64,000 nucleotides of DNA. Source: Candidatus Hydrogenedentota bacterium. Lineage in GTDB: Bacteria; Hydrogenedentota; Hydrogenedentia; Hydrogenedentales; SLHB01. The translations under genes were made by a program, and so were the position numbers. Positions 4,417 to 61,845 of this stretch are shown piece after piece. The first letter of the stretch is position 1, and each line of letters opens with the position of its first letter. The notes below the pieces were generated by a model that was given only the letters and a program-made list of their open reading frames with translations, did no database searches and was not told the origin of the DNA. Where the stretch lies: NCBI GenBank assembly GCA_052033955.1, contig JBPOJD010000003.1, forward strand, positions 23,128-87,127, read 5' to 3'.

Positions 4417-4568
4417 GTCCTTTTCTCCATTGCCTGCAGCGATGCGCGTGACCGCACCCATGCTAACACACGCTGGCCGCTTTCCGGGCCTTGGATCCTG
4501 AAATCGACGTCATGCGCGCTATCTGGCATAATGCATCCGGTCGTTCACCCGAGGGGAGAAGAAGCACC

Positions 4569-5888: not shown

Positions 5889-5914
5889 CCGCCACGGCCT
5901 GAGGCCCGCTTGCG

Positions 5915-7231: not shown

Positions 7232-7502
7232 GCGCATCCTCCTGTGGGCGTTTGTCTAACACCTTGCCATTCTGGATGATAGCGCGGGCCGCCGACAGGA
7301 ATCAAGGCATGGACGGGGCCCAAACGGCCGCTCGCTGCCGGTTGACTCCACCGGGCACGATGCGGTAACCTCCCTTCAATAGACGGCTTAGCTCGCTTCG
7401 GACGTGTGCCCATCCAAGAACAGGCCCCGGAATGACGATGCACACCCAATATGTGACCCTTGCTTGCGGCAACGTCCCGGCGCGGCTGCGTCCGGAGGCC
7501 CA

Positions 7503-9587: not shown

Positions 9588-9627
9588 CGTACGTGCCATC
9601 CGCTTCGGTGTGAAAGGAGAGACGACC

Positions 9628-10623: not shown

Positions 10624-10698
10624 ACGTCAGGAAAAGCGCCGGTATACTCGTGGCTCACGCTCCGGGGACGCGCTGCTGCAAAGGATGGGACGGCAATC

Positions 10699-12902: not shown

Positions 12903-12950
12903 GGTCCGTTCTCAAGACCCTTCCTTGCGGCGCATCGTGCGGGGCCACGT

Positions 12951-14423: not shown

Positions 14424-15865
14424 GAGGCGTCCGCCCCCCCTTCCACCTGAGGCTTACCGGTCGACGCAAGGAGATGAAGTGTCAGCCCCATGGACATATA
14501 GAGCGCGATGATGCTGCCAACCGCGAGCGGTTGCAGCATGGAGAATCCGAGCGCGCAGCAGTACAATGCGAGCATCGCGACCACCGGGGCGGCGTCAGCC
14601 GTGGTATCCCGGCGGAGTCCCCGGAATACGCGCCGGATCCATGCCACGTGAAACGCGCAGAAGAGCAGGAACCCCGGCACGCCCGTCTGGTACAGCACCG
14701 TCAGCAGTGTGTTGTGGGTACTGGAACGATACCAGTGAAAGAGACCATCGGATGCCCGGAAGGGATACACCAGTACCTGGCCCAGCCCGGCTCCGAGAAG
14801 TGGCCGTGCCGAAAACTGCCGCCAAGCTTCCTGCCACGCGTAGTAGCGCATGTCGTCCTTGAGCGAGAACGATGCCACGCGATCAACGAACTGCTCCCAC
14901 GCGTCGGTGAACGCGTGTGGAAACACGTAGATCGCGGCCGCGGCGCCACACGCGAGCAGAAGGGTGCCGAAGACACACACGTTGAAGAGTCCCTTCAGCC
15001 GTTCGCGCCGGATCCACGCGGCCCCCGCGAGTGCCAGCAAGGGAACGGCCAACGCAAGCACCGCCGATACGCGGTAACCGCTCATGAGCAGCAGCACCAT
15101 GGCCAGGGCGGCGCCGGGCACAGCCATCAGTTTGCCGAACCTTGATCCAGGCGTGCGCAGAATGGCGGCGAAATACGCCAGCGACATGGCCAGCGTGATG
15201 CATTCGGTGTACGAGAGCAGACGCGGCGACGGTATGTTGGCCATAATCACAAACTGGTGTTCGCGCCACGTCTGGCCGGTGGCCAGCCGGTACAGTCCCA
15301 TCGCGGCGACGAGGAGGAATGCGGTCCACAGGGCGGCGGGCACCAGGCGGAGGTGACGCCGGTCAAGCGGCATCAGCAGGACCAGGGGGAAAGCCAGGGA
15401 GTAGAAGAATATCCGCCGATAGGCCCCCAGAACGTCGTTGATGCGATGGTCCCGTAAGACAAGAGTCATCGCCAGTGCCAGGATGCCCCAACAGAAGTAG
15501 GCCGTGTAGGCCCTGGGGACACCAAGTTTGGGCGGCGCGCCGCAGGGTTCCGGGCTTCGTGTTCCTTCGGGTTTGAGCCAGCGCACCACCGGCAACGAGA
15601 GCATCAGCAACAGCACCGCATCCGCGCCGTAGAAGGAGTACCCGCCGATGGAAACCGGGTGCTCGTTCATGGCCACGGCGGCGCCGGTGAGCACGGCGAA
15701 GAATGGCAGCACCAGCCAATCGCCGACGGGCAGCAAAAAGAGTGCGACGGCCACGGCGATGAGCCCCAGAAGAACCGTCAGTTCCACCCAAACCAGCGCG
15801 AAGCCCGCGGCCGCCACCACGACGAGCGCCACTATTCTGGTTGCGGATGTGGATCGGGTCTGCAT
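14414..15865 (-). CDS. O-antigen ligase/polymerase-like membrane protein (Wzy_C domain)
   Basis: Multi-transmembrane protein with a central periplasmic loop (GYRVSAVLALAVPLLALAG...HNTLLTVLYQTGVPG) typical of the Wzy/WaaL family. The six-frame ORF extends to 16612, but its first 249 codons are Arg/Pro-rich, hydrophilic and overlap the divergent asnB-like gene. The ATG at 15865 (MQTRSTSATRIVALVVV...) is chosen as start; the alternative is 15964. Confidence 0.6.
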   Translation of the reverse strand: MQTRSTSATRIVALVVVAAAGFALVWVELTVLLGLIAVAVALFLLPVGDWLVLPFFAVLTGAAVAMNEHPVSIGGYSFYGADAVLLLMLSLPVVRWLKPEGTRSPEPCGAPPKLGVPRAYTAYFCWGILALAMTLVLRDHRINDVLGAYRRIFFYSLAFPLVLLMPLDRRHLRLVPAALWTAFLLVAAMGLYRLATGQTWREHQFVIMANIPSPRLLSYTECITLAMSLAYFAAILRTPGSRFGKLMAVPGAALAMVLLLMSGYRVSAVLALAVPLLALAGAAWIRRERLKGLFNVCVFGTLLLACGAAAAIYVFPHAFTDAWEQFVDRVASFSLKDDMRYYAWQEAWRQFSARPLLGAGLGQVLVYPFRASDGLFHWYRSSTHNTLLTVLYQTGVPGFLLFCAFHVAWIRRVFRGLRRDTTADAAPVVAMLALYCCALGFSMLQPLAVGSIIALYMSMGLTLHLLASTGKPQVEGGADASWE

Positions 15866-16165
15866 CGTGTCTGCGGAGTTTCCTGTGCCGTACCGCCCGA
15901 TAGGACCCGCTGCACGCTGCCGCACCGTGCCGGGCCAAGCCGCCGAAACTATAGCACACGCCATGAACCGTGCGGTAGCCGGCGTGGAGCCGGACAACCT
16001 GATCCTGAGCACCGTGACATCCCCCGCGCCCCGCCTCTCGTCTCTCGGAAAAGCCGTGCCGCGCGGTGGTCGTTTGCGCGGCCCGACCATGCTTGGTATC
16101 CTGCGGTGCATCAGTAGTTGTGCCGTCAATATCAAGGACGTACGCGCGTCCAGTGGAGGGATCGC

Positions 16166-18061
16166 ATGTTCTCGTTTCTCTTCGTTGCGGGCTGTGAAGA
16201 CCAGGCTGCGGGCGAACTGCTCGCGGCAGCTTGCGCGGTGATGAGCGGGCAGATGCCGGGCTGGCGAGCTGACGGCCGCATCGAGACGGCAGACCTGCCC
16301 GAGATCAGCGGTGGATTTGCTGTCATGGTGCCACGGGTCGGTTGGGAGCGTCCCCTCGTGGACGTTCATGTAGACGAGGATACCGCGGCGGTCGTCTATG
16401 GATCGCTCATCCTTGGCGAGGCGTCGATTGCCCGGGCGCTTTGTGGCGCATACCGTCGCGGCGGCGCGTCGGCCGCCCGGCGCCTCGAGGGCCACTATGG
16501 CGCCGTGGTCGTTGATCGTGCCAAGGGCGAGACCGTGGTGCTCGGCGATGTTTTGGGGGACCGGTCGTTGCGTTATGTGCATTCGGGCGGCATGTTGCTG
16601 GTCAGCCCGCATGACCTCACCCTCGTGGCGACCGGGCGCGTGGACGTGACGGACGTTGATCTGTGCAGCGCGGCCGCAGTGCTTGCCTTGGACAACTCCA
16701 CCAAGTCGAAGAGCCTGCTGAAGGGTATCGAGCCAGTGCCGCCGGAGACTTGGCTGCGCTGGCGCCCGGGCCGCCTTGACCAGATGGTGGATCAGCCTTT
16801 TTCATTCGAGAACCGCATTGCGGCGAACGATGCCACGGCCCTGCGCGACCAGAACGAGCGCATTCTAGCGCTGGCACGCCAGCAGGCGGCCGAACATCTC
16901 GCTGGCCGTGATGAGATCGCCCTTGACCTTACGGCTGGCCAGGACTCCCGCGCGATCCTGGCCCTGATCCGTTCGATTTCCGAGCCGCCCCGGATCAACG
17001 CCTATTGTGAGGGCGCACCGTGGTCGCTCGATGTCCGCGGCGCCAGAACAGTTGCACGGGCGGCGGGCATCCATTTTTCCTCGGCCAATCCTTCACCGGT
17101 CGAACCGGACACGTATCTGGACAACCTGGCTCGCAGCGCGTTCTGGATGAACGGTGCGACGGATGCCCAGCGCATGGTTACGGCCCGGCCCGTCTTCCCG
17201 CCTGCGGGCGTTCGCGTGTTTGGCGTCCCGGGGGAGTGTTTCCGGGACCCCTATCCGCTCGGCGATATCAGTGCCTGGCGCGACCAGCCGGCGGTCCGGT
17301 GTGTTTCCGATTTCATCTTCTCGAGAAGCCGGCACCGCACAAGCGGACTGGCGTTTATTCGTTTCCACACGCTTCCGTTCAGAGACGAGCTGCGCCGCTC
17401 AGTCCGCGAGCGTGTCGAGCAACGGCTCAACGACTTTGCCGCGTTCGCGGACGATCCGCACGACATCTGGAGTCTCTTCTACCTGCTTGAGCACATCATG
17501 ATCTGGGGGCAGATGGTCTATCGTGAACCCTATTGCCAGCACTACTGGATCCCGTTTGGCAGCCCGTCCCTGCTCGCGGAGACCTTCCGGTTTCCGGCGC
17601 CGATTGGCCCGCATTGCACGCTTCACCGCGACGCGATTCGGCGGTTCTTCCCGGAGGCCTACCGGATTCCGGTCAACGGCCGCCTTTTCCTGTTCTCGGA
17701 GACCCTTTCCAAGGCGTACAAATACAAGTACTACGCGGAAAAGGCGGTGATGCGGCTGCTGGGGCGCTTCGGGTCGCGCACCCGCCTCTATCAGGACAAG
17801 CTGCGGGCGCATCAGGATGAGCGTGGACGGTTTCTGGCCGAAACGCTGGGGGGCGTGGTGCGCGAGCGCCTGACCGGTTCCGGGAGCGTCGGGGGGCAAC
17901 TTTTCGGCGATGAGGGCCTTGACCGGCTCATGGCGCAGTTCATGGCCGAGCCCGGCTACCGGCACAGCCTCGCCTCCGTATCCCTGCTGCTGTCGATCGA
18001 GAGCTTCCTGCAACAGGCGAGAAATGTCGGGGCGGCCGCCGGTCTTTCTCATCGCGGGTGA
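16166..18061 (+). CDS. Asparagine synthase-family amidotransferase (AsnB/WbpS-like), EPS-associated
   Basis: The AsnB fold and synthetase domain, including a PP-loop-like LTAGQDSRAIL motif, are recognisable. The ATG at 16166 has a GGAGGG Shine-Dalgarno. The N-terminus (MFSFLF...) lacks the Cys2 nucleophile found in the MCG start of canonical AsnB. Confidence 0.75.
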   Translation: MFSFLFVAGCEDQAAGELLAAACAVMSGQMPGWRADGRIETADLPEISGGFAVMVPRVGWERPLVDVHVDEDTAAVVYGSLILGEASIARALCGAYRRGGASAARRLEGHYGAVVVDRAKGETVVLGDVLGDRSLRYVHSGGMLLVSPHDLTLVATGRVDVTDVDLCSAAAVLALDNSTKSKSLLKGIEPVPPETWLRWRPGRLDQMVDQPFSFENRIAANDATALRDQNERILALARQQAAEHLAGRDEIALDLTAGQDSRAILALIRSISEPPRINAYCEGAPWSLDVRGARTVARAAGIHFSSANPSPVEPDTYLDNLARSAFWMNGATDAQRMVTARPVFPPAGVRVFGVPGECFRDPYPLGDISAWRDQPAVRCVSDFIFSRSRHRTSGLAFIRFHTLPFRDELRRSVRERVEQRLNDFAAFADDPHDIWSLFYLLEHIMIWGQMVYREPYCQHYWIPFGSPSLLAETFRFPAPIGPHCTLHRDAIRRFFPEAYRIPVNGRLFLFSETLSKAYKYKYYAEKAVMRLLGRFGSRTRLYQDKLRAHQDERGRFLAETLGGVVRERLTGSGSVGGQLFGDEGLDRLMAQFMAEPGYRHSLASVSLLLSIESFLQQARNVGAAAGLSHRG

Positions 18062-19910: not shown

Positions 19911-22900
19911 TTACGGTTCCAGAAAATCCGGGATGCCGTTGCCCGAGCTGTCGCCTTGCCCCTCGACGGCATCGGGGATGCCGTCGCCGTCGGAATCTGC
20001 CTCGGGGTCCAGGATCGGCAGGATGCCGTGGGTCACGAGCTGCCAATACTCGGTCGGCAGCACAAAGCTCGCGCCTTGCGCGAGGATGTAGTCGACGATC
20101 TGGTCGAACACGGGAAGGTTGCCGGGGAAGACCGGGGCATCCGGGTGAATCTGCAACACCAGGTACTCGGGTTCGGGCCGATAGTGCCCAACAAAGTGGT
20201 CGTAATCGAAGGTGCCAATCGTGACCGGCTCGAGCGAGAAGTCGCGGCCAAGCACCATCTTCGTCGAACCCGCGGATGGTCCGTACAGCCACACCTCGAT
20301 GTCCGGCGATTCGTTGATTACCTGCGTAGTTGCCGCGTCGATCTGGTTGAAGGGGGCGCCAAAGGCCGTGAAGGGGAACCCGAGCACATCTCGGGCCAAC
20401 GCCTCGGACATATCGACGTGCGCCTTCTGGAACGAGTAGGGCGTGTTGAAGAACTCGGTCCAGCCGACGCCGGACGAGTGGTCGTAGCCGTGCAGCCAGA
20501 ATTCGAAGCGCCCGGTCTCATGCAGCGCCACGGTGAGGTCGATGTATGCGCCCCAGGCGTTGTCGGCCGGGGGCGTGGGTACCGACGGGTAATCCGGGTC
20601 GAGTGATTGGGCGACGACACCCATGGAGGACTTGATCCCCTTGTCGAGGATGTAGTCGGCGTAGATCTGCCAATAGGGTCCGACGCCGTTGGGCTCCCAT
20701 GGGTAACGCGCCCAGTCGTCTGCCTTGAGCATCACAAATTGGTTGTACAGGACCAGTGCGGCGGATCGGGTGACCAGCGGAACGCCCTGCCGCGATACCG
20801 TCACGCTGACTACCGCGTACCCAGGTTCGACCGCGCTGGGAGCCGTCAACACCGCCGAGGAGCCCTGGGCCGTGAGCGAGCCGGCGGTCGTGGTCCACTG
20901 GTAGGACCAGTAGGGATCCAACTCGTCGCCCGGCGTCACGTGCAGCGTGACGGACTGGCCGGGACGCAGTGAGCCAGTCGCAGGCAGAACATGTAGGTCA
21001 TCCGGATCGGCAATGTGGGTCGGTTTGTCGATGTAGTTGGGCAGGCCGCCGGGTGTCAGAGCATCCGGTGTGCCGTCCCCGTCCGAATCGAGATCGAGGA
21101 AATTGGGGATGCCGTCCCCCTCGAGGTCCTCCATCCCTTCCATGTGATCGGGAATCCCGTCGCCGTCGGTGTCTCCCAAGGGGTCGAGCATCGGCAGCGT
21201 TCCAGTCCTTGCCAGCCGGGCGTATTCGGTCGGAAGGATGAAGGTGGCCTTGTTGGCGACCAGCCAATCGAGGATCAGGCCAAATTCCGGGAAGTTGTCG
21301 CGGAAGGTCTGAGCCCAAGGCTGATGCTGGAGCACCAGGACGCCCGGTGTGGCCGTGTAAGTGGAGAGGAAGCGTGCGTAGCTCGGCATCCCTGAGCTGG
21401 ATTCGACTTGGACGCTGGTCGAGGGCAGCACAAGCTTCTGTGAACCGCTTGCGGGCCCATACAGCCACGCCTCGACGTCTGGCGACTCGTTCACCACCGT
21501 GGTGGTGACGGCGTCGATGGCGTTGAACGGCGCACCAAAGGCCGTCAACGGAAACCCGAGGACATTGCGGGCCAAGGCCTGGCCGCGTTCGAGGTGATCT
21601 TTCTGATACTCATATGTGGTAGCGCGGAATTCCCACCAGCCCGATCCGCTCGACCGGTCGTAGCCGTTGTTCCAGAACTCAACATACCCACCGTCGTGGC
21701 GGTCGCGCATGTACTGCATGCTTTGCGCGTAGGTCGGGTGGTCGTTATAGGCCGGGTCCAGGAAACGGGTGAGCACCCCCGCCGACGTCTTGATGCGGCG
21801 CGCATCCACCACCTGCTCGAGATAGTACTTCCACTGATCAGGCACGACCTTCCACCCCACGAAGACGTCACCCTTGAGCACCACGAACTGCGAATAGACC
21901 AGCACAACGCAGTGGCCAGTACCCGCATGCTCGCCGTCGATATAGAGCGAGACGGACACGACGTCATAGCCGGGGTTCACGGTCGCCCCGGCGGCGTACG
22001 TGACCACGGCCCCATCGCTGGTGATGGACCCGCGCTGCGCGGCCCAGACGTACTGTCCCTGAGCGGCGGGCGAATCCACGCGGAGCGTCGTCGTCTGTCC
22101 CCGGCGGACCATGCGGGAGTCCGGCGTTACATGCAGCGTTGCTGGAGAGGCCGCAATGACGATGACGGTGCGCGAGACAGGCTCAGCGTTGTTTCCGGCG
22201 GCGTCGGCGACGTTGTAGGTGACGGTATAGGTGCCGGGTACGGCGGTATCGACGTTGCTTGTGGCGACGAGTTGTGCGGTGATGTCGCCATCGACGTCAT
22301 CGTGAGCGGTGGCGCCGGCATCGACGTAGGCGTCGCCGGTGTAGAGGTAGACGGTGGCGTCGCCGATGAGCGTGATGACGGGGGGCGCGGTGTCGGGCGG
22401 CGCGAGCACAGCGACGGTGCGCGAGACGGTCTCGGCCGCGATGCCGAGCGAATTGGAGACGTCGTAGGTGAGTACGTAGACACCCGGAGTGAACACATCC
22501 ACCGCGCCGCCCACGACGATACTCGCTGTCAGGTCGCCATCGGTTTCGTCATAGGCAGTTGCGCCAGCGTCCACATAGGGTTGGCCCGCGGCGACGGAGA
22601 CCCACGGTTCGCCCAGCAGGGTGATGGTGGGCTTGACGGCTGGGGTGGACTCGACCGTCAGCACGGCCGCGTTGGAGACGGCATTGCCAAGCCAGTCGCC
22701 TGCCCGGTTGCGGATTTCGCAGGTGTACACGCCCGCGTCATCGCTCTGAACGGCCGCGAGCGAGAGCGTTGGCGCTTCGGCGCCCGGCAGGGGCGTGCCA
22801 TCCTTCCTCCACTGGTAGAAGAGCGGTTCCGACCCATCGGCGACCACGGTGAACGTGAAGGGCTGACCGATATAGGCCGTGCTGCCCTGAGGGTGCGTGA

Positions 22901-24044
22901 GAATAGCGGGCGGATGGTCTACCTCGAGGAAATCCGGGAGCCCGTTGCCATTGCTGTCTCCCGCCCCTTCGATGGTGTCGGGAATGCCGTCGCCGTCCGT
23001 GTCCGCATCCGGTTCAAGCGGCAGGCGGCCTTCGCGAACGAGGCGGTAGTACTCGGTGGGCAGGATGAAGGTCACCTTCTGGGCAACAAGATGGTCCAGG
23101 ACCTGTTCAAACTGCGCGAAGTTGTCGCGGAAGGTCTGAACATAGGGGTGGTGTTGCAGCACGACGACGTTTGGCTGGGCCGAGTAGATTGAAGTGAAGC
23201 GGCTGTAGCTTGGTGACCCCCAACTGCTCTCGATCTCGCCGCCGCCGCGGCTGAGCGTGACGCCGTTGAACCCGGTCGTGGGGCCGAAGAGCCACACGCG
23301 CAGGTCCGGCGACTCGTTGGCCACGGTCACGGTCGTCGCGTCGTACTGATTGGCCGGCGCCCCGAACGCGGTCATCGGGAAGCCGAGAACAGTGCGCGCC
23401 AGGTTTTCGGTGAGGCTCATGTGGCTCTTCTGGAACTCGTAGGTGGTATTCATGAACTCGTACCACCCGGTGCCGCTCTGATGGTCGTATCCTTTGTTCC
23501 AGAACTCGACGCGTCCGGTTGCGTGCAGCGCCGACATGTACGCCATGTTCTGGGCATAACTTGCCAGGTTGTTGTAGGCGGGGTCGAGAAAGCGGCCCAG
23601 CACGCCGATGGATGTCTTGATCTTGCGAGTCGTGACCACGCGGTCAATGTAATAGAGGTAGTTGGCGGGGATGACCTTCCAGGTCACCCAGTCTTCGGCC
23701 TTGAGGACCACAAACTGGGCGTAGACCAACAGGGCGCAGTACCGGGTATCCAGCAGGGTGTCGCCGGAGTGAACCGACACGGACACGATGTCGTAGCCGG
23801 GCGCGAGGCCGGTCGCGGCCGAGTAGGTTGCCTGGGCGCCGTTGCCGGAGACGAGACCGCGCTGAGCCGTCCAGGTATAGGTCCACGCGGGGTCGGGAGG
23901 GGTGGCTGTCTGGGCGTGCAGGGCCGTGGACTGGCCTGTGCGCACGGCCCACTGGCCGGGGACGACGGTGAGGGATTCTAGCGCTGCCTGCGCGGCAACG
24001 GCGGGCAAAAGCAGCGCCAGGAAAACACGTATCCACGGACCCAT
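19911..24044 (-). CDS. Giant secreted multidomain protein (1377 aa): three polysaccharide-deacetylase-like modules (DUF2334-like), one Ig I-set-like domain, two DUF5011 Ig-like domains, and Ca-binding TSP3-like motifs
   Basis: Signal peptide [21 protein letters not shown]. The ATG at 24044 has an AGGAGG Shine-Dalgarno 5 nt upstream; the upstream part of the ORF to 24104 is rejected. There are three approximately 340-aa paralogous modules (...FVVLK.D.W..W...P..Y.YY.....D...IKTS.GVL.RFLDP.Y.......YAQ.M.YM...H..G.VEFW..GYD..SG.GW.EF..T.Y..QK.H......LAR.VLGFP.TAFGAP.N..D..T..V.NESPD...WL.GP..G). DxDxDGxxD-type motifs recur ([29 protein letters not shown]). Confidence 0.8.
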
Positions 24045-24259
24045 GCGGCACCTCCTTCCGAGACAGATTTCGCCTCGGAAAGATAGGTGCGCCCCGCAAC
24101 CCATTCGTCGCGTTTACACGCTCAGTATAGCACGGAACAGCCGTTGGAGGAGCAATATTTCTGCCGGAACGGGACTCAAAGCAATGCCGGCGGCCCGCTT
24201 GTCGCGGACCGCCGGCACGTTCCGTCGCGTTGCGCCCCCTTGGACGCCAAGGTGTTGTC

Positions 24260-27200
24260 TTATCTGAAGCTGCGCGTCGTGGCCACAACCCTGACCGTGC
24301 GCGTTACCGTCTTGGCCGCGTTGCCCGCCGTATCGCTCACGTTGTAGGTCAACGTATAGGTGCCGGCCACGGACGTGTTCACCGTGCCACTTACCACAAT
24401 GCGCCCGGTGATGTCGCCGTCGACGTCATCATAGGCGGTGGCGCCTGGATCCGTAGAGGCTGAGCCGACGGGAATCCGTACATTGGACGAGCCGATCAGC
24501 GTGATCACCGGCGGCGTCGTGTCGAGGACCGGGGCCGGTTCCGGCTCGGGCTGAGGGGCCGGGCTGCTGGAACTGTGGACGAACTCGAACGCGCCGATGT
24601 CCGGGGCGCCGCCCTGGGGCACCGGCGTGCCGTCGAAGTCCGCCTCGACGCCGACGTAGGCGCCCGCATCGACGAGCGGGCTGTCCGGCTTCAGGCGGAA
24701 GTCGCCCTTGGCCGGGTCCACGAACTTGTGGTCACTCACGCGCAGGTCGCCGGGGCGCAGCGTGAGGTTGCCCGGGACGGCGTTGTGGCTCACGGCCGGA
24801 CTCGAGTTGGTCCACATGTACCGGCCCGTGGCCGAGATTGCGTTGTTCCTGACGGTCGCGCTGGGACAGTCGTGCAACTCGATGTCGTAGTCGCGGACGC
24901 CGTGGAACGTGTTGTTCTCGATGCGGATACCCGGGAGCGGCACGACCTCGCGGGTCGAGTCATTGATGCCCCAGATGTTGAGGCCACGGTAGGCCGTGAT
25001 GACGTTGTTGCGGAACGTGATGTCACGGGTGGGCTGGCGCATCTGGGAAATCATCGCGGCCTGATACCCCGCGTTGCCGGTTGGCAGATTGACCGTGTTG
25101 CCTTCGATCAGGATGTCGTAGGCAGGCCCGAAGGTCTGGAAGGCATCGACATGAGGCCCGACGTTGCCGTAATCGTCCATCGTGATGCTGTGGATGTGGT
25201 TGCCGCGGATCACGTGGTTCCGGCCACCAAACTTGATGCCGTCGGCGTCGGGTCCGCCGGCCGTGCTCAGTGTGGGATACAGCGGGTGCTGCACGGTGTG
25301 GCTGATGTCGTTGTACTCGATCAACTGGGCCATGCCGTTCAGCGTGATGCCCGCGTAGGCGCCGGCATACTCAATGCGGTTGGCGCTGATCACGTTGTAG
25401 CTGCTGTCCGCGGCGTCCTCGCCGAGGGTCGAGTACACCATGACCCCTTCCCGCAACGTGTGGTGAACGTAGTTGTTCTTCACCGTGCAGTACTTGGTGT
25501 TGATCAGGGCGACGCCACTTCCCGTGCCCCAGACATCCCATGAAGCCAGCCGGGGAATCGTGATCTCGAAACCGTCGATCTGGACGTAGGAGCCGCGTAC
25601 CGTGAAGCCGTAGGTGACCACGCCCGGTGCCGCAGCCTTGAAGACAAGCGGGGCGCTGGCCGTCCCGGACCGCGTGATCGTAACCCGCTGGGCATAGGTG
25701 CCCGGGGCCACGAGACAGGTGTTCCCAGCAGGCATGGAGTTGGCGGCCTTCTGGATCGTCTTCCACGCTGCCGTGGGCGAAAGGCCGCTGTTGAGGTCGT
25801 TGCCGGTGGCCGCGTTCACGTAGTACGTGTTGGCATCGGCGATGACCTGTTCGACCTTGACGTAGCGGGTGACCGGCGTGGCGGCGTTCCCGGCGTTGTC
25901 CTTGACGTTGTAAACCACCGTATAGTTGCCCGCCACGTACGTGTTCACCGTGCTGGTCGCCACAATGCGGCTGGTGATGTCGCCGTCCACATTATCCGAG
26001 GCCGTGGCGCCGGCATCGGTGTACACCGCGCCCACCGTGAGCGTCACCTGGGCCGATCCGAGCAGGGTGATGACCGGCGGCGTCGTATCGGGAGCGGTCT
26101 GGACAACCACCGTGCGCACGACCGGTGTGGCAGCGTTCCCGGCGTTGTCCTTGACGTTGTAGGTGACCGTGTAGGTGCCGACCGCGTTCGTGTTGACGTT
26201 GCTGGTCGTCACGATCCGGCTGGTGATGGTGCCGTCGACGTTGTCCGAGGCCGTCGCGTCGGCGTCGGTGTAGGCCGTGCCCACGGTGACCGTGACGGTT
26301 GCCGACCCGAGCAGGGTGATCACCGGCGGAGTCGTGTCGACGACATTGACCGCACGCACGACGGGGGTGGCGGCGTTCCCGGCGTTGTCCTTGACGTTGT
26401 AGGTGACGGTGTAGGCGCCGACCTTGGCCGTATTGACGTTGCTGGTGGCGACGACGCGGCTGGTGATGTCGCCGTCCACGTTATCCGAGGCCGTGGCGCC
26501 CGCGTCGGTGTAGGTGGCACCAAAGGAGACCGTAACCGTCGCCGATCCGAGGAGCGTAATGACCGGAGGGGTCGTATCGGGAGCGGTCTGGACGACCACC
26601 GTGCGGACAACAGGCGTGGCGGCGTTTCCGGCGTTGTCCTTGACGTTGTAGGTGACGGTGTAGGTACCCGCCGCGTTCGTGTTGACGTTGCTGGTGGTGA
26701 CGATACGGCTGGTGATGTTTCCGTCGACGTTGTCCGAAGCCGTGGCACCCGCGTCGGTGTAGGTGGCGCCAAGAGAGACGGAGACAGTCGCCGACCCGAG
26801 CAGCGCAATGACCGGCGGCGTCGTGTCGACGACGTTGACGGTGCGCGCCACGGGCGCTGCGGAGTTTCCAGCGATGTCCTTGACGTTGTAGGTGACATTG
26901 TAGGTGCCGACCTTCGCGGTATTGACGTTGCTGGTGGCGACGATACGGCTTGTGATGTTTCCGTCGACGTTATCGGAGGCGGTAGCGCCCGCATCGGTGT
27001 AGGTCGTGCCGAAGGAGACGGTGACGGTCGCGGAGCCGAGCAGGGCGATGACCGGCGGCGTCGTGTCGACGACGTTGACGGTGCGGACGACGGGCGCAGC
27101 GGCGTTTCCGGCGCTGTCCTTGACGTTGTAGGTGACGTTGTAGGCACCTACCTTCGCGGTATTGACGTTGCTGGTGGCGACGATGCGGCTGGTGATGTTT

Positions 27201-28693
27201 CCGTCGACGTTATCGGAGGCGGTAGCGCCCGCATCGCTGTAGGTCGTGCCGAAGGAGACCGTAACGGTCGCCGACCCGAGGAGCGTGATGACCGGCGGGG
27301 TGGTGTCCGCGGGGTTGGTGCCAACCGAGGTCGAGAACTCAAAAGCGCCGATATCCGGGGCCGATCCTTGCGGAACGGAGGTTCCATCGAGATCGCTCGT
27401 AATGCCGACATGGGTTCCCGCATCGATGAGCGGGCTGGTGGCCTGCAGGCGGAAATTACGGCCCGCGGCGTCCACAAACTTCGGATCGCTGATCCGGACG
27501 TCGCCGGACCGCAACGTGATCGAACCCGGGACAGCGTTATGGCTGGTGGTGGGCCCGGAATTGGTCCACATGTACCGGCCCGTGGCCGAAATGACGTTGT
27601 TCTTGACGGTTGCACTCGGGCAGTCGTGCAGTTCGACGTCGTAGTCGCGCACGCCGTAGAACGTGTTGTTCTCGATGCGGATGCCCGGAAGCGGGACGAT
27701 CTCGCGGGTCGAGTCGTTGATACCCCAGATGTTCAGCCCGCGGTACGCCGTGATGACGTTGTTGCGGAAGGTAAGGTCGCGCGTGGGGGTGCGCATCTGG
27801 GAGATCATCGCCGCCTGATAGGTGCCGTTGGTGGTCGGCAGGTTGATGGTATTGCCTTCGATGAGGATGTTGTAGGCGGGACCGAAGGTCTGGAAGGCAT
27901 CGATATGCGGACTCACGTTGCCGGTGTCCGCCATGGTGATGCTGTGAATGTGGTTGCCGCGGAAGATGTGGTCGCGGCCGTGGAACTTGATGCCATCGGC
28001 ATCCGGGCCACCGGCAGTGCTCAGTGTGGGATAGAGCGGGTGCTGGATGGTGTGGCTGATGTCGTTGTTCTCGATGAGCTGCGCGGCGCCATTGAGCGTG
28101 ATGCCGGCGTAGGCGCCCGCGTAGGCGATCCGGTTGCCGCGAATGATGTTGTAGCTGCTGTTGGTGGAATCCGCGGCGCCGGTCGTGAAGACCATGACGC
28201 CTTCCCGCAGCGTGTGGTGAATGTAGGTGTTCTGCACCGTGCAGTACTGCGTGTTGACGAGCGCGACCCCGCTGCCCTTGCCCCAGACGTCCCAGGAGGT
28301 CTGGCGAGGCATCGTGATCTCGAAGCCGTCGATGACGACGTAGCGCACGGTCGAGGAACCCTGGACCGTGAATCCCTGGGTGACCACGGCGCCGTCAGCC
28401 TTGAAGATGAGGGGGGCCGAGGCCGTGCCCGAACGCGAGATGGTCACGCGTTCATTGTAGGTGCCCGGCGCGACGAGACAGGTATTGCCCGCGGGCATGC
28501 TGTTGGCGGCCTTCTGGATCGTGCGCCACGCGGAGGCCGACGAGGTGCCGGTGTTGGCGTCGTTGCCACTTGAACCGTTTACATAGTAGGTGGCGGCGTG
28601 GGCCATAGCGCCCGTGGCCAGCAGGGCCAGCACCACCACGGTGGTGAAAGCGCGGAAGGGCGGAATGCTTCTTCCTGTGCGAATTGTTCCCAT
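24260..28693 (-). CDS. Giant secreted protein (1477 aa): two right-handed parallel beta-helix (pectin-lyase-fold) modules separated by six tandem DUF5011 Ig-like repeats, with a seventh at the C-terminus
   Basis: Signal peptide MGTIRTGRSIPPFRAFTTVVVLALLATGAMAHAATYY. Shine-Dalgarno AAAGGAG upstream of the ATG at 28693. The beta-helix module (ATYYVNGSSGNDANTG...[34 protein letters not shown]...[29 protein letters not shown]...) occurs twice. The approximately 80-aa repeats begin DTTPPVITLLGSATVTVSFGTTY.DAGATASDNVDG.ITSRIV.TSNVNT...Y.VTYNVKD.AGNAA.PV.RTV.V. Confidence 0.8.
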   Translation of the reverse strand: MGTIRTGRSIPPFRAFTTVVVLALLATGAMAHAATYYVNGSSGNDANTGTSSASAWRTIQKAANSMPAGNTCLVAPGTYNERVTISRSGTASAPLIFKADGAVVTQGFTVQGSSTVRYVVIDGFEITMPRQTSWDVWGKGSGVALVNTQYCTVQNTYIHHTLREGVMVFTTGAADSTNSSYNIIRGNRIAYAGAYAGITLNGAAQLIENNDISHTIQHPLYPTLSTAGGPDADGIKFHGRDHIFRGNHIHSITMADTGNVSPHIDAFQTFGPAYNILIEGNTINLPTTNGTYQAAMISQMRTPTRDLTFRNNVITAYRGLNIWGINDSTREIVPLPGIRIENNTFYGVRDYDVELHDCPSATVKNNVISATGRYMWTNSGPTTSHNAVPGSITLRSGDVRISDPKFVDAAGRNFRLQATSPLIDAGTHVGITSDLDGTSVPQGSAPDIGAFEFSTSVGTNPADTTPPVITLLGSATVTVSFGTTYSDAGATASDNVDGNITSRIVATSNVNTAKVGAYNVTYNVKDSAGNAAAPVVRTVNVVDTTPPVIALLGSATVTVSFGTTYTDAGATASDNVDGNITSRIVATSNVNTAKVGTYNVTYNVKDIAGNSAAPVARTVNVVDTTPPVIALLGSATVSVSLGATYTDAGATASDNVDGNITSRIVTTSNVNTNAAGTYTVTYNVKDNAGNAATPVVRTVVVQTAPDTTPPVITLLGSATVTVSFGATYTDAGATASDNVDGDITSRVVATSNVNTAKVGAYTVTYNVKDNAGNAATPVVRAVNVVDTTPPVITLLGSATVTVTVGTAYTDADATASDNVDGTITSRIVTTSNVNTNAVGTYTVTYNVKDNAGNAATPVVRTVVVQTAPDTTPPVITLLGSAQVTLTVGAVYTDAGATASDNVDGDITSRIVATSTVNTYVAGNYTVVYNVKDNAGNAATPVTRYVKVEQVIADANTYYVNAATGNDLNSGLSPTAAWKTIQKAANSMPAGNTCLVAPGTYAQRVTITRSGTASAPLVFKAAAPGVVTYGFTVRGSYVQIDGFEITIPRLASWDVWGTGSGVALINTKYCTVKNNYVHHTLREGVMVYSTLGEDAADSSYNVISANRIEYAGAYAGITLNGMAQLIEYNDISHTVQHPLYPTLSTAGGPDADGIKFGGRNHVIRGNHIHSITMDDYGNVGPHVDAFQTFGPAYDILIEGNTVNLPTGNAGYQAAMISQMRQPTRDITFRNNVITAYRGLNIWGINDSTREVVPLPGIRIENNTFHGVRDYDIELHDCPSATVRNNAISATGRYMWTNSSPAVSHNAVPGNLTLRPGDLRVSDHKFVDPAKGDFRLKPDSPLVDAGAYVGVEADFDGTPVPQGGAPDIGAFEFVHSSSSPAPQPEPEPAPVLDTTPPVITLIGSSNVRIPVGSASTDPGATAYDDVDGDITGRIVVSGTVNTSVAGTYTLTYNVSDTAGNAAKTVTRTVRVVATTRSFR
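25873..27328. repeat. Six tandem, near-identical coding repeats of about 240 bp (DUF5011 Ig-like units) inside the giant beta-helix gene
   Basis: The unit ggcggcgttcccggcgttgtccttgacgttgtaggtgac recurs at about 25876, 26131, 26371, 26611, 26851 and 27091, i.e. a period of 240 bp (255 bp once), with only a few substitutions per unit. Confidence 0.85.
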
Positions 28694-29068
28694 CTGTGAG
28701 ACTCCTTTGTAACGTACCGCTGCATGTGCAATCCAAAGAGTCTCAACTCGAGAGGCGCGGGCGAGGGCCAGTCCCCATGCGCCTCCCGGGACCGAGGGGC
28801 GCCCTTAGAGGGAACTCTGGGGGCGCCTGACGACGTCACGGAGGCGGGTGCGGATGTCGCGCCACGCCGTGAGCGTTGGTGTCAGACCGGTAGAGGAGGC
28901 GAACGCGCCAGCGGGTGTCTGCGCTGCAATAGCGACGCTCTCAGGGGACAGACGTGTCATCAGAGATTGAGGCTCCTTTTGCGTGCATCCTCGGAACAGC
29001 GTGCTGGCGAATCGAGTCTCAAAGCGGCGAGACGGAAGCCGTCGAAAGCCACACCGTCTTGCGACCTT

Positions 29069-29120
29069 CACTCAGTGTTTCTGGACTACCGATCCAGGGA
29101 CACTGAGTGTCGTTTTTCGG
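29069..29120 (+). terminator. Rho-independent-terminator-like hairpin oriented on the plus strand
   Basis: A 9-bp perfect stem CACTCAGTG ... CACTGAGTG encloses an inner 5-bp stem (CTGGA/TCCAG), followed by TCGTTTTTCGG. Immediately after comes a second small hairpin TTTCGG-CCTG-CCGAAA. The U-run occurs only in plus orientation, although no convincing plus-strand gene lies upstream. Confidence 0.35.
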
Positions 29121-29479
29121 CCTGCCGAAACGTCGCGCCGTGGGGCACGACTCACCGCACACAGAACGAGTGCACATGACCTGGGACAGATGACTGACAC
29201 GATGCGGCAGGTCCCAAAAAACGATGGAGGGGGTGGCGTGTGCGCCGGGAGGGAATTTATCAGTAAGCGCACATTGATGTCGCCGAACCCTCAAATCTCG
29301 CGCCGTAGTCCGCAGACCCGGCATGAACTCCACAGAGAGTATGCCTTTTCGCAGCCAGAATGTCAAGTGTTTCTGGGAAATAATCGTTCTCGGTTGACAA
29401 ACATTGACCGGAAGGAAGGCGTAAATCACGCCGTGTTGGGGGGATGCGGATGCAGCGGCAAGGCCGGTGACCGGCCGGG

Positions 29480-49300: not shown

Positions 49301-49582
49301 CTCGACCTCCCCTTCTTTCTCACATGCAGGGTCTTTTTCACTTTTCGCTCCTATATCAAAATACCCGCAACCATCGCCATCGCCTATCGGGACGCGGCGC
49401 ATTATCGGGTCAGGGGAACCCGGATAACGCGAAAGCGGCCGATCAGGTACACTGTGGTGGGGCTCAGACCGCTCGAGCCGTCCAACCACCTTCACGCGCC
49501 GCTCTGAGCCCCCCGAGATGCGGCGCGTTTCCGGCTACAGGCCGGGTGGGAGACCTCCACCGTGTTTCCCGGAGTGAGGCCA

Positions 49583-51250
49583 ATGCGTCGTAGCGCGTCG
49601 CGCGCCGTCGGCCCGGTATCCCTGTTTCCCCTCGCGGCGGCGCTGGCGGCGGTGTTGGCGGGTCTCGGGATTGCCTTGGCCGCAGACGCCGCCACGTACT
49701 ACGTCGACGGGGCCACGGGGCGCAACACCAACAACGGCCTGAGCGCCGGTACCGCCTGGCGGACGATCCAGAAGGCGGCCACCACGGTGACCAGCGGGAG
49801 CACGGTGCTGGTGGCGCCGGGCCAGTATCCCGAGCGCGTGACCATGTCCCGGTCGGGCGCGGCCGGTGCGCCGATCGTCTTTCAGGCCATGGGACCCGGG
49901 ACACAGTGCTACGGCTTCACAGTCGAGGGGTCGGTCATCGTGCGCTACGTCATCGTGGACGGATTCGAGATCACGATGCCACGAAGCAGCACGTGGGATG
50001 TATGGGGCGCCGGAAGCGGGGTGGCGCTCGTCCATACCCAGTACTGCGAGGTGCGAAACAACTGGATCCACCACACCTTGCGCGAAGGCGTCCTGGTGCA
50101 CACCCGCGGGGCGGCGGACGGATACAACAGCAGCTTCAATGTGGTCCGCGGGAACCGCATCGAGTACGCGGGGACCTATGCGGGCATCACGGTCAACGGC
50201 GCGTCGCAGCTCATCGAGAACAACGACATCAGTCACACCATCCAGCACCCGCTCTATCCCATCCTCAGCAGCGCGGGCGGCCCGGATGCCGACGGCATCA
50301 AGTTTTCGGGGCGGGACCACGTGTTTCGCGGCAACCGGATTCACAGCCTGAGCGCCAACGACCCGGGGAATGTGGATGCGCACATCGACGCCTTCCAGAC
50401 CCTGGGCCCGGCGTACAACATCCTCATCGAGGCCAACGTCATTGACCTGCCGCCGAGCGATTCCCATGGTCAGGCGGCCATGATCAGCCAGATGGTGCAG
50501 CCTACGCGCGACCTGACCTTCCGTTACAACGTGATCTGCGCCTACACGGGCTTGAACATCTGGGGCATCCACGACCAGACGCGCGAGGTGGTTCCGATCA
50601 GCGGGATACGCATCTTCAACAATACCTTCTACGGCATGCAGGCCTACGAGATCGAGCTGCACGACTGTCCGTCGGCCGTGGTGAAGAACAACATGATGTC
50701 GGCGACCGGACGCTACATCTGGTTCAACTACCCGACGGATATTGGCTACAACGGCGTCCGCCGCCGCAGCATGGCACGTCCCAACGACGTCGTTGTCACC
50801 GATGCGCGGTTTGTGGATGCATCCGCACGCAACTTCCGGCTGCTCGCCGACAGCCCGCTGATCGACGCGGGCGTCAACGTGGGATTGGCCGAGGACTTCG
50901 ACGGCACGCCGGTTCCGCAGGGAAATGGGGTCGACATTGGAGCTTTCGAGTTTGACCTGCGGAGCACCAATGGAGGTGGTGACGACGGCGGGGGCGAGGC
51001 AGATCCCGACGACGACGGGGACGGCCTGTCCAACGCGCGGGAACTCGAGCTCGGCACCGACCCGAACAACCCCGATACCGATGGTGACGGGATCCCGGAC
51101 GGCGTCGAGGTGGCGCTCGGGCTCGATCCGCTCGACCCGGGCGACCCCGCGCTTCTGATTGTGCGCGGATGGCCGTTCTTCTTGATAGCGGGTCTGTTGG
51201 CGCTGGTGTCCCGGCGCGCGTGGCGGCCCGTCGCGCGGCGGCAACCCTGA
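49583..51250 (+). CDS. Secreted right-handed beta-helix protein (paralog of the modules in 24260..28693) with TSP3-like motifs and a C-terminal transmembrane helix plus Arg-rich tail
   Basis: ATG at 49583 after a GGAGTGAGG Shine-Dalgarno. Signal peptide [36 protein letters not shown]. The beta-helix module ([56 protein letters not shown]...) is about 60 percent identical to the modules in the giant protein. The C-terminus reads ...[82 protein letters not shown]. Confidence 0.8.
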
Positions 51251-58956: not shown

Positions 58957-61620
58957 TCAGTTGGAGCGCAGCTTTCGCGATCGCCTGCTGAACACGGCGA
59001 GGGCCGCGAGCACGAGCGCCACCACGCTCAGGTCGGTCCACGGCGCGCCGTGGCTGCTCCCGGCATGGCAGCCGACCGCAGTGTTGCCATCGCCGCCGCC
59101 GCGGATGAAGGGCGTCACGTTGACCGGTCCGATGATTTTCTTGTTGATCATTCCTCTGGTGTAGACGCCCCAGTCATTGTTCTGGGCCAGCATCTCAATG
59201 CCGGTATTGTTGATGATGAAATTGCCGCCAATATTGCGGAACACATTGTTGCCGCTCTCACCGACCCTCGTGCTTCCCAGGAAAGGCACGGCTGCGGCGG
59301 TACTTTTTTCGAGTGGCGGCTGCACAAAGATCGCATCGCTCCGAATAGCCTCAAAGGTGTTGTCGCGCAGTTCGACTTCCGTGTCAATGGCATGTACGCC
59401 AAAGTGAAGCCGCCGGATCTGGCAGTCTTCAATGAGCGTGTCGAAGGACCCCTCGCCGTCAATCAGCAGACCTATCGAAAACAGATTGTCGTTGCCCACA
59501 AAGTCGACACCGGCGACGTGCATGTTTACATTGTGGATGCGCAAGAGCGTCGTAACGAAGCCGTGGACGCCGGGAAGGCGCACGGTGCAGTCATAGAGAC
59601 CGCCGTTGTCGGCGCCGTACAAGACGAAGCTCTCCGCCCCCATCTGCCCGACGCCACTGATGACCGTGGCGCCCTGTCCGGCGCCCGCCAGCGTCACATC
59701 AGCGCCGAAGACGACGCTTTCCGGGTAGATGCCGGCGCCCACGCTGACGTTCACGGGGCGGGCGCCCAGTCCGTAGATGCCCCCGGCGGTATAGATGCGG
59801 GCGGCCGTCATGGCGCGCGTGATGGTTCTCCATGGACTGTCGGCGGCCCCGAGGTTCTGGTAATCGTCGCCTTGCAGTTTCACAAACCGTTCCTGCGGCG
59901 GATCCGCCGGGTCGGTGGGATCGATATCATAAATCACCTCGTATCCATTGGGCAGTCCGTCGCCATCGGCGTCATCCAAGGCATCATGCATGGTCGGATC
60001 CAGGCCGTAGGCCACCTCGACGCCATCGCGCATGCCGTCGCGGTCCGTGTCCCAACTCAGGGGATCGGTGCCGTACACCATGATCTCGTCGTGATTCGTC
60101 AGTCCGTCGCCATCGTCATCGCGATCGGCATCCTCCGCGTCATAGGGGTTCAGCCCGGCGGCCACCTCCAACAGGTCCGGAATGCCGTCGCCGTCCGTGT
60201 CGTCCTCACCGGTAATGCCGTCGCCGTTTTCGCCCTGCAAGAACTCATAGGCACCCATGTCCGGTGCGGCGCCGCTGGGCTGCCAGATCCCGTTCAACGA
60301 CGGACCCGGTACCCACAGCGCCTCGGCGGCGTCGATGCTCGGCGAGTCTGCGGTCAGGTTGTAGTCGCCGTTGGCGGGGTCCGCGAAGAGCGGGTCGGCG
60401 GTGATGTTGCCCAAGCCGGGCAGGGACGACAGGAGCGCGGAATAGGTGACGGTCCGGGAGGTGGCCGTGATCGGTTCGCGCACAATGCTGTTCTGAACAG
60501 TGACGTTTTTCGCGAGAATGCCGCCGTTCACATTATCCGCCACCGTGCAATGCAGCAACTGCACGGCGCCCGAGTCGGTGGCATGGACGGTCCGTCCTGT
60601 GTTGCCGGTTACCTGACAGTTGGCCATGATCAACGAACCTACATGCAATCCGGTGAGCGTGCCGCTTGCCGTGGACGTGTTGCCAGAAATGATCGTTCGC
60701 TCGATGACGACGGCACTGTTGTACGCCACGGCCCGCGTCGTGTTGTCGAGAAAGACACAGTCCGTGATGCGCAGCGGCGCGAAATTTGTCCTGACCGTCC
60801 CGTTGGTGGACGACGTGCGCTCGAACCGGCTGCCCTGTATCTGGCCACGGCTATGCAATAAATAGACGGCTGTTCCGGTCAGGTCCTCGAACACGCAGTC
60901 GTCGACCAAGAGGTACGCCACCGCGGATGCCTCTATGCCGGCCACTGCGTCTGCGTTAGAACCGTTCCCCCGGAAGGAACATCCACGGAACGTGGCAACC
61001 CGGCTTCTGTCCAGTTGCACCGGCGCACGCCCCGTGAAGTGGTGGAACTCGCAGTTGATGAAGACAGGGGCACAGTTGGCCGAGGCGTCTACAGCCTCGC
61101 TCTCCGGACCACTGCCGCGGAAGCGGCAGTTGCGCACATGCGGGGAGGCTTCACGGATGTAAAGTGCAACATTCCAGCTGTTGCTCGTCGGCCCCGCCCC
61201 CTGGATCGTGAACCCGTCCAGTACGTTGCTTGCGGCCCTGATCACAACCGAGGCAGGGTAGCCCTTGCGGGCCGTGGAACCGTCGATGATGGTCACGTTG
61301 GCGTCCCAGTCGCGTTCTTCGCGCAGCGTCTCGGTCCCCGAGAATCCGCCGTAGAGGTCGACGTTGCTGCGCATGATGAGCGCCCCATCCGGGTCGGTAC
61401 GCAGTTCGTCATAGGTGCCCGCGGCCACCCAGACCTCACTGAACGTGGCCGGGTCGGCCGCGTCGATGGCATCCTGGACCGCGCGGAACGCCGTGGCCCA
61501 CGAGGCCCCGTCCTGCACGCCGGACGTGTTGGCGCGGTCAACGTAGATGACGGCGGCCGGAGCGGACAGGGCGGTCAGTATGGCTGCGCAGACAACACCT
61601 GATAGTACGAGTACACGCAT
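58957..61620 (-). CDS. Secreted right-handed parallel beta-helix repeat protein (887 aa) with TSP3-like Ca-binding motifs and a C-terminal transmembrane helix plus Arg/Lys-rich tail
   Basis: ATG at 61620 after a GGAAAGGA Shine-Dalgarno. Signal peptide MRVLVLSGVVCAAILTALSAPAA. Many NxT/NxS-rich beta-helix rungs. Asp-rich DxDxDGxxD motifs occur mid-protein. The C-terminus reads ...GGGDGNTAVGCHAGSSHGAPWTDLSVVALVLAALAVFSRRSRKLRSN. Confidence 0.8.
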   Translation of the reverse strand: MRVLVLSGVVCAAILTALSAPAAVIYVDRANTSGVQDGASWATAFRAVQDAIDAADPATFSEVWVAAGTYDELRTDPDGALIMRSNVDLYGGFSGTETLREERDWDANVTIIDGSTARKGYPASVVIRAASNVLDGFTIQGAGPTSNSWNVALYIREASPHVRNCRFRGSGPESEAVDASANCAPVFINCEFHHFTGRAPVQLDRSRVATFRGCSFRGNGSNADAVAGIEASAVAYLLVDDCVFEDLTGTAVYLLHSRGQIQGSRFERTSSTNGTVRTNFAPLRITDCVFLDNTTRAVAYNSAVVIERTIISGNTSTASGTLTGLHVGSLIMANCQVTGNTGRTVHATDSGAVQLLHCTVADNVNGGILAKNVTVQNSIVREPITATSRTVTYSALLSSLPGLGNITADPLFADPANGDYNLTADSPSIDAAEALWVPGPSLNGIWQPSGAAPDMGAYEFLQGENGDGITGEDDTDGDGIPDLLEVAAGLNPYDAEDADRDDDGDGLTNHDEIMVYGTDPLSWDTDRDGMRDGVEVAYGLDPTMHDALDDADGDGLPNGYEVIYDIDPTDPADPPQERFVKLQGDDYQNLGAADSPWRTITRAMTAARIYTAGGIYGLGARPVNVSVGAGIYPESVVFGADVTLAGAGQGATVISGVGQMGAESFVLYGADNGGLYDCTVRLPGVHGFVTTLLRIHNVNMHVAGVDFVGNDNLFSIGLLIDGEGSFDTLIEDCQIRRLHFGVHAIDTEVELRDNTFEAIRSDAIFVQPPLEKSTAAAVPFLGSTRVGESGNNVFRNIGGNFIINNTGIEMLAQNNDWGVYTRGMINKKIIGPVNVTPFIRGGGDGNTAVGCHAGSSHGAPWTDLSVVALVLAALAVFSRRSRKLRSN

Positions 61621-61845
61621 TGGGTGGTTTCCTTTCCCCCGTAGAGACCTGCCGTTCCCCGCCCCCATGGCGCTGACGGCAAAGCCGGCACATGAACCTG
61701 CGCCGATTGGACCAGATGGTATCACGCGGGGTTTCAGCCAAGAAAGTTTCGCCGCCGCGGGATGGCCAACGAGCAATAGTCTCGCCGCGGCGGGTTGTTC
61801 ACTACAAGGCCTGACGCCGTCTACCCGTCAGGCTGGGAGGGACAT

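Follow-up and report, generated by a model that had tools for sequence, protein, structure and literature searches.

A putative secreted two-module β-helix enzyme with an old array of immunoglobulin-like domains in an exopolysaccharide locus of Candidatus Hydrogenedentota

Contig JBPOJD010000003.1 of a Candidatus Hydrogenedentota bacterium (assembly GCA_052033955.1) carries an exopolysaccharide (EPS) locus in the 64,000-nucleotide stretch from position 23,128 to 87,127, hereafter the window, in whose own coordinates all positions are given. Within this locus lies a single uninterrupted open reading frame (ORF) on the minus strand (24260..28693), which begins with ATG, is preceded by AAGGAG 8-13 nucleotides (nt) upstream and has a GC content at third codon positions of 0.87, matching that of the real genes of this 65% GC window. 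The best named relatives of a housekeeping gene of the window are metagenome-assembled genomes of Candidatus Hydrogenedentota. A protein identical to its product is recorded (P0121), from a 141-kb NCBI contig, and the ORF is a real gene. The calculated mass of the mature protein is about 151 kDa and its calculated isoelectric point 5.4. The reading that we favour, and consider fairly probable, is that this gene encodes an exported, two-headed β-helix enzyme that would process the cell's own EPS, its two heads being separated by an old and stable array of immunoglobulin-like (Ig) domains. The features of the gene, in the order of the protein (aa, amino acids) and with the evidence for each in brackets, are as follows.

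24260..28693, minus strand: whole gene, 1477-aa two-module β-helix/Ig-repeat protein, predicted secreted (ORF list and translation)
28595..28693, minus strand: putative signal peptide, aa 1-33, MGTIRTGRSIPPFRAFTTVVVLALLATGAMAHA, followed by ATYYV (read from the sequence, by eye)
27308..28606, minus strand: β-helix module M1, aa 30-462, about 12 rungs between a DUF1565-type N-cap and a choice-of-anchor-Q C-cap (PF07602, PF13229, NF041518, AlphaFold)
27068..27307, minus strand: Ig unit R1, aa 463-542 (PF16403; closest unit R2, 90.4% nt identity)
26828..27067, minus strand: Ig unit R2, aa 543-622 (PF16403, unit table)
26579..26827, minus strand: Ig unit R3, aa 623-702, followed by a TAP linker of three codons (pairs with R5 in the tree; nt identity 84.6%)
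26339..26578, minus strand: Ig unit R4, aa 706-785 (unit table, tree)
26090..26338, minus strand: Ig unit R5, aa 786-865, followed by a TAP linker of three codons (unit table, tree)
25850..26089, minus strand: Ig unit R6, aa 869-948, which has diverged furthest within the array (72-78% nt identity with R1-R5; basal in the R1-R6 clade)
24557..25843, minus strand: β-helix module M2, aa 951-1379 (77% identical to M1)
24524..24556, minus strand: Pro/Glu-rich linker PQPEPEPAPVL (translation)
24284..24523, minus strand: seventh, C-terminal Ig unit R7, aa 1391-1470 (PF16403, best stretch aa 1397-1469)

Pfam family PF16403 (Bact_surface_Ig-like, formerly DUF5011) matches seven stretches of the protein with a total of 454.5 bits (cutoff 27; E = 1.7e-139). 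Both modules score above the Pfam cutoffs for DUF1565 (PF07602) and Beta_helix (PF13229), and the choice-of-anchor Q model NF041518 reaches 73 bits (cutoff 25) over two stretches, one at the C-terminal end of each module. The first-pass annotation had described two right-handed β-helix modules of about 430 residues separated by six tandem DUF5011-type Ig domains, and this plan is confirmed; it had overlooked R7 (24284-24523) and a fourth β-helix gene elsewhere in the window (58957..61776). The N-terminus displays a basic n-region, a hydrophobic core and an AHA-A cleavage motif, of Sec type as judged by eye, and the 1477-aa protein is predicted to be exported by Sec. No cell-anchoring signal is found at the C-terminus of its translation.

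The two modules share 77.3% aa and 77.2% nt identity over 428 aligned residues, with 0.82 synonymous substitutions per synonymous site (dS) and a ratio of nonsynonymous to synonymous rates (dN/dS) of 0.19. From M1 and 68 homologues, AlphaFold modelled a regular β-helix with a predicted local distance difference test score (pLDDT) of 96.4. The fold matches of the model include AlgE4 (30.1), Pel9A (29.9; 23% identity over 326 residues), a member of glycoside hydrolase family 141 (GH141, 28.3) and NosD (28.0), below which come many lyases, hydrolases and phage depolymerases. Foldseek placed at the top the GH136 lacto-N-biosidases, Pel9A, GH120 XylC and members of polysaccharide lyase (PL) families PL9 and PL6. 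Searched against the sequences of the Protein Data Bank (PDB), the profile of the family matched GH120 XylC (5e-22) and GH136 LnbX (4e-16), mainly through a shared N-terminal cap, and a profile of the central region alone gave weak matches to GH28 (E about 1e-4). As the fold-match scores are too flat to choose a chemistry, we inspected the residues themselves.

Outside the Asn ladder, seven polar residues are near-invariant: D202, D204, H221, H234, D236, Q239 and E250 in module numbering, each 87-100% conserved among the 68 homologues, which are 32-77% identical to M1. They correspond to D231, D233, H250, H263, D265, Q268 and E279 of the protein, and M2 carries the equivalent set D1149, D1151, H1168, H1181, D1183, Q1186 and E1197. 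The DADG ... HxD pattern, placed on consecutive rungs, is reminiscent of how GH28 enzymes arrange their NTD/DD carboxylates. More generally, 48 of the 49 family positions conserved at 90% or more are kept in M1, in M2 and in the single-module paralogue of the window, so that both heads look functional; both modules are probably active.

PF22842 (Pel9A-like_beta_helix) has precomputed matches in close homologues and is not among the Pfam matches of M1 or M2 at E values up to 1. We class the module as an uncharacterised clade of the DUF1565/Pel9A-like/choice-of-anchor-Q group. Membership of the AlgE/AlgG, PL9, GH136 or GH120 families was considered, and the catalytic residues lend it no support. 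The first-pass annotation had asked whether the module resembles polysaccharide lyases or C5-epimerases: in fold it does resemble AlgE4, Pel9A and RbmB. Alignment of catalytic residues returned only the cap-driven PDB matches and the weak GH28 ones, and does not separate hydrolase from lyase or epimerase. A phage tailspike or depolymerase origin was likewise set aside, since such proteins match the fold only in a generic way and the gene is set in an EPS locus of the chromosome.

Among characterised systems, the closest in architecture are the mannuronan epimerases AlgE1 and AlgE3 of Azotobacter vinelandii, with the order A1-R1-R2-R3-A2-R4 and onwards. AlgE1 comprises six modules, two of which are catalytic β-helix A-modules that collaborate (PMC12269086), and our protein resembles it in carrying two catalytic-looking β-helices in a multi-module chain. 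The likeness is one of plan: the profile of the target family has no significant sequence relation with AlgE (E of 1.6 against 2pyg, in the wrong region), the AlgE spacers are RTX-type R-modules whereas those of the target are PF16403 Ig domains, with no RTX match in the Pfam scan, and AlgE enzymes use type I secretion whereas the target has an N-terminal signal-like sequence. The pectate and rhamnogalacturonan lyases of the Pel9A/PL9 group (1ru4, 5olq) match the target in sequence only in its N-terminal part. Pel9A uses a Ca-binding Asp cluster and Lys273 as the base; an equivalent could not be established in the target family, which has the conserved acids D202, D204, D236 and E250 but, in its central region, no Lys or Arg that reaches 90% conservation. 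The matches with GH120 XylC (3vst) and GH136 enzymes (5gqc, 7v6m) are driven by the N-cap and the C-cap. Finally, RbmB, the Vibrio polysaccharide lyase of Vibrio cholerae (PDB 9ozd), resembles the M1 model in fold, but is a single domain and only 14% identical to M1; it relies on a Lys227 base and several Arg (PMC12993940), whereas the target family shows no equally conserved Lys or Arg.

The genomic context points to the synthesis of an acidic polymer. The EPS genes of the window include two Wzx-like and two Wzy-like genes, several family 4 glycosyltransferases (GT4s), a priming phosphotransferase, a Wza-like exporter and a chain-length determinant, and are associated with an AAA ATPase, a sigma-54 activator, carbohydrate esterase family 4 (CE4) deacetylases and a FemAB-like gene. 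Two nucleotide-sugar 6-dehydrogenases (309 and 396 bits against a curated cutoff of 189.8) lie beside a 3-dehydrogenase-like oxidoreductase and a DegT aminotransferase, a combination that belongs to the pathways for uronic and amino-uronic acid sugars, suggesting that the polymer contains both. The models of the PEP-CTERM system (ATPase, chain-length determinant, exporter, FemAB, regulator) all stay below their cutoffs (for instance TIGR03015, 242 against 324.5 bits) and the ORFs scanned in the window include no exosortase; the locus is therefore not filed as an XrtA/PEP-CTERM locus and only resembles such systems. EPS loci often encode an enzyme that trims or modifies their product, such as AlgL, AlgG and AlgE, PslG or PelA. 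RbmB is another example of a polymer-processing enzyme of an EPS locus (PMC12993940). Such a role would suit the target.

A full-length protein search retrieved two metagenomic proteins of 1135 aa (P0126) and 1129 aa (P0129) that are 67-68% identical to the target and consist of a signal peptide, a module, three Ig domains and a second module, with no C-terminal Ig domain. Their loci (L100 and L102) contain a cassette of a DegT aminotransferase, a nucleotide-sugar dehydrogenase, a GT4, two small ORFs, a CE4 deacetylase and a FemAB-like gene, and a gap of 0.94-1.08 kb precedes the two-module gene. The window shows the same cassette order, from 36139 down to 28693, which makes P0126 and P0129 positional orthologues of the target. 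They thus share with it the EPS cassette and the module-Ig-module plan, and differ from it in having three Ig domains, no C-terminal Ig and an extra single-module gene upstream. This extra gene (P0007 at 7551-8918 in L100, P0005 at 7637-9061 in L102) lies between the FemAB-like and the two-module gene, a slot that is empty in the window, where the single-module paralogue lies 21 kb away instead. In a tree of modules, the M1s and the M2s of P0126 and P0129 pair by position, whereas M1 and M2 of the window are sisters. Positional orthology and a conversion tract between the modules of P0126 (a 90-nt window at 96% identity) make concerted evolution a likelier cause of this sisterhood than independent duplication.

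Beyond these two orthologues, no close relative of M1 turned up among 185,579 species genomes (best identity 37%), and the best match of the full protein in a scan of metagenome contigs, at 59%, was to a single module. An exhaustive search of 1.84 billion cluster representatives indicated a family of some size, 305 of them matching at E <= 1e-30 and 4115 at E <= 1e-10. Among the 150 best, about 10 contain two full-length module matches: the two-headed design is a recurrent minority and not unique. An extreme multi-module relative, P0247 (4910 aa, outside the window), has 15 stretches matching the module.

Put together, these data suggest the following scheme. The protein of about 151 kDa would be exported by Sec and act, after export, on the acidic heteropolysaccharide of the surrounding Wzx/Wzy cassette, either by cleaving the polymer (as a hydrolase or a lyase) or by C5-epimerisation. 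The six PF16403 Ig domains would hold the two catalytic-looking modules apart, and the two heads could provide two specificities, or act cooperatively and processively on a single chain, as in AlgE1. The array would have grown by stepwise in-frame duplications, including one two-unit step of 489 bp, and then been kept by purifying selection, its copy number shifting over the timescale of lineages (three versus six) and not by rapid slippage. The anatomy, the divergence of the units, the fold, the conserved residues, the synteny and the difference in copy number between orthologues are established by the data; secretion, catalysis, substrate and cooperation between the heads are inferred. As a rough division, hydrolysis has a little under an even chance of being the chemistry, lyase or epimerase activity somewhat less, and the absence of any catalysis is unlikely.

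Several observations weigh against this scheme. (i) The signal peptide was called by eye only. (ii) The clade of the module has no characterised member. (iii) In the central region, no Lys or Arg reaches 90% conservation among the 68 homologues (R216 stands at 82% and R281 at 76%), and a metal-assisted lyase would need one. (iv) In hidden Markov model alignments, D411 and D418 of LnbX and D382 and E405 of XylC, which we take to be the catalytic carboxylates (the numbering agrees with the printed alignment), stand opposite non-conserved or non-acidic positions. (v) The AlgE catalytic motif, YG(F/I)DPH(D/E), is only half present, being reduced to SPHID in M1 (GNVSPHIDAFQ) and to GPHVD in M2 (GNVGPHVDAFQ), the Tyr and the first Asp being absent from both. 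(vi) A close homologue, P0003, is encoded away from any evident EPS locus.

Some of these points would suit a non-catalytic surface or matrix protein, in which the helices bind polysaccharide or the surface of a host or particle and the Ig domains form a stalk, in the manner of PfbA or of LIC10774-type proteins of Leptospira. The protein does match the NCBIfam family of LIC10774 in part (110 bits; cutoff 380), arrays of PF16403 Ig domains are a usual feature of large surface proteins, and the nearest enzymes of solved structure have catalytic residues that the target family does not conserve. However, a set of His, Asp, Glu and Gln residues that is invariant in 68 distant homologues looks more like an active site than a binding face, the C-terminus bears no anchoring signal, the synteny with the EPS-tailoring CE4 and FemAB-like genes is conserved and the best matches are overwhelmingly enzymes; we therefore regard a non-catalytic role as unlikely. 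A bolder version of the enzymatic scheme is that the module founds a new GH or PL family with its own Asp/His/Glu active site and that, in the two-headed proteins, the string of Ig domains is a molecular ruler that sets the spacing of the two sites along one EPS chain; the number of Ig domains (three in some lineages, six here) would then tune the size or pattern of the product. This version is speculative, and we hold it to be rather improbable as a whole.

The array, which carries the other half of our reading, was divided at the recurring DTTPPVI motif, giving six in-frame units of 80 codons (R1-R6, 25850-27307) interrupted by two 9-nt inserts encoding TAP, one after R3 and one after R5. 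Tandem Repeats Finder reported an array at 25871-27307 with a period of 240 (5.9 copies, score 1508, 81% matches) and a second period of 489 (3.0 copies, score 1786). The 240-bp period of the first-pass annotation is thus right, whereas its coordinates were off by about 20 bases. Its description of the units as nearly identical in DNA does not hold: R1-R6 are 72.1-90.4% identical pairwise, the top pair being R1/R2, and 66-73% identical to R7. The longest exact run between any two units is 45 nt (R1/R2) and the whole gene contains only 13 exact repeats of at least 25 nt. Between units, dS ranges from 0.33 to 1.01 and dN/dS from 0.08 to 0.27, and DNA identity is not above protein identity. The array is a set of old domain duplicates retained by purifying selection and not a slippage-prone repeat.

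The units also retain the order in which they arose. The tree is (R6,((R3,R5),(R4,(R1,R2)))), with R1-R6 monophyletic, whereas R7 groups apart from them, with the terminal Ig domain of the single-module relative P0003 and the Ig domains of the neighbouring gene. This topology indicates that the array grew within its own lineage by stepwise duplication, and R7 is older than R1-R6. The 489-bp super-period is explained by one duplication step that copied two units together (R2-R3 and R4-R5).

A sister strain, present in the Logan assemblies of SRR29340343, SRR29340344 and SRR29340345, provides a time scale for these duplications. Three of its contigs (L094-L096) are colinear with the window from 45012 to 27203 at about 95% identity; the first 497 codons of the gene are colinear and 94.7% identical in nt, with a dS of 0.185 and a dN/dS of 0.09. 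The youngest pair of units, with a dS of 0.33, is no younger than the split between the strains; nothing beyond this is claimed here, as dS values are noisy over 80 codons. The three contigs stop at the start of the array and none crosses it. One (L095) ends at 27203, inside the 45-nt exact repeat of R1 and R2 (27192-27236 / 26952-26996), and another (L094) at 27560, adjoining a 29-nt exact repeat of M1 and M2 (27561-27589 / 24807-24835), indicating that exact repeats of modest length fragment k-mer-based short-read assemblies. The collapse of the assembly feared in the first-pass annotation is thus not what happens: the region does cause trouble, but in the form of fragmentation.

It had also been proposed that the array expands and contracts by slipped-strand mispairing or frequent recombination and that the spacer differs between strains. 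The units are indeed tandem and in frame, duplication has clearly enlarged the array (once by two units together), the exact repeats of 25-45 nt, few as they are, could allow rare unequal exchange through RecA, and the orthologues have three Ig domains where the target has six. Yet the inference of slippage or frequent recombination rested on the premise of near-identity, which also defines contingency-type hypermutable repeats, and the units differ at 10-28% of their bases with no exact run above 45 nt. Their dS of 0.33-1.0, set against 0.185 between sister strains, makes all the duplications at least as old as the split, and the dN/dS values indicate that every unit is individually maintained. 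As for the spacer, the three-versus-six difference falls between proteins that are only 67-68% identical, so that its length varies between lineages and not demonstrably between strains. A hypermutable array is accordingly improbable, and slippage in particular is largely refuted. That the assembler made or mis-joined the six units or the second module is highly improbable: although the sister contigs break at exact repeats and the region is hard to assemble, each unit of the window is distinct, with its own, mostly synonymous substitutions, the frame is intact over 4.4 kb, the units give an ordered phylogeny, the module-Ig-module plan recurs in independent metagenomes and the first 497 codons are colinear in the sister strain.

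Four other features of the window relate to the gene, either by position or by content.

19911..24104, minus strand: downstream neighbour, 1397 aa, 155 bp away, with a CE4 deacetylase domain, Ig domains and DUF2334 (Pfam)
28694..29479, minus strand: 786-bp non-coding leader/promoter region (upstream of the target gene)
49562..51250, plus strand: single-module paralogue with thrombospondin type 3 (TSP3) repeats, a C-terminal hydrophobic segment and a basic tail (Pfam, NCBIfam)
58957..61776, minus strand: fourth, distant β-helix gene, 939 aa, with DUF1565, Beta_helix and TSP3 repeats

The downstream neighbour combines CE4, Ig_3, two PF16403 domains, a deacetylase-like DUF2334 and an acidic TSP3-like tail; like the target beside it, it pairs two putative catalytic parts spaced by Ig domains. 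On the other side, the interval of 786 bp before the target may be a long regulatory leader. It displays a sigma-70-like promoter (29366 to 29338, about 640 nt before the start codon), a hairpin with a 17-bp stem (29069-29109) and two loose GG/GC matches to sigma-54 promoters, the one nearest the start codon being read as wrongly spaced. The leader matches no Rfam family and is 95% identical in the sister strain; it has no sequence similarity to the gaps of L100 and L102, though these are alike in size.

The third, inverted copy of the module that had been reported 21 kb away is indeed there, at 49562..51250, and is 67% identical to M1 over 424 aa. Its C-terminus, after the TSP3 repeats, resembles a PEP-CTERM-like sorting signal. 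The C-terminus encoded by the fourth β-helix gene is reminiscent of a MYXO-CTERM-type sorting signal, with its Cys, hydrophobic segment and basic tail. Sister-strain contigs L091 and L092, elsewhere 94-99% identical to the window, lack the stretch 59108-61748, indicating that this gene was gained or lost between strains.

The left-hand EPS block contains a second candidate polysaccharide lyase, a heparinase II/III-like protein (7404-9587, plus strand; PF16889 and PF07940). Left of 18055, two sister contigs (L097 and L098) carry genes for a histidyl-tRNA synthetase, an ankyrin protein, a quinolinate phosphoribosyltransferase, a biotin ligase and other housekeeping proteins in place of the Wzy, Wzx and glycosyltransferase genes of the window, and a contig of a third sample (L099) keeps the arrangement of the window (region from about 4500 to 18055). 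The left-hand EPS block therefore appears to vary between strains.

In conclusion, the target is an ordinary modular gene, probably for an enzyme, in an EPS locus and not a fast-changing repeat locus. Its array illustrates that hypervariability should not be read from a conspicuous 240-bp coding period alone, and that the DNA identity and dS of the units need measuring. If our reading is correct, the gene would add to the modular, secreted enzymes that tailor EPS a further example, this one from a lineage without cultivated members, and its practical value would be modest. Single modules, two modules with three Ig domains and two modules with six constitute a natural series of linker lengths, and an uncharacterised, fairly large β-helix clade found in conserved EPS cassettes could be mined for biofilm-degrading or polymer-modifying activities.

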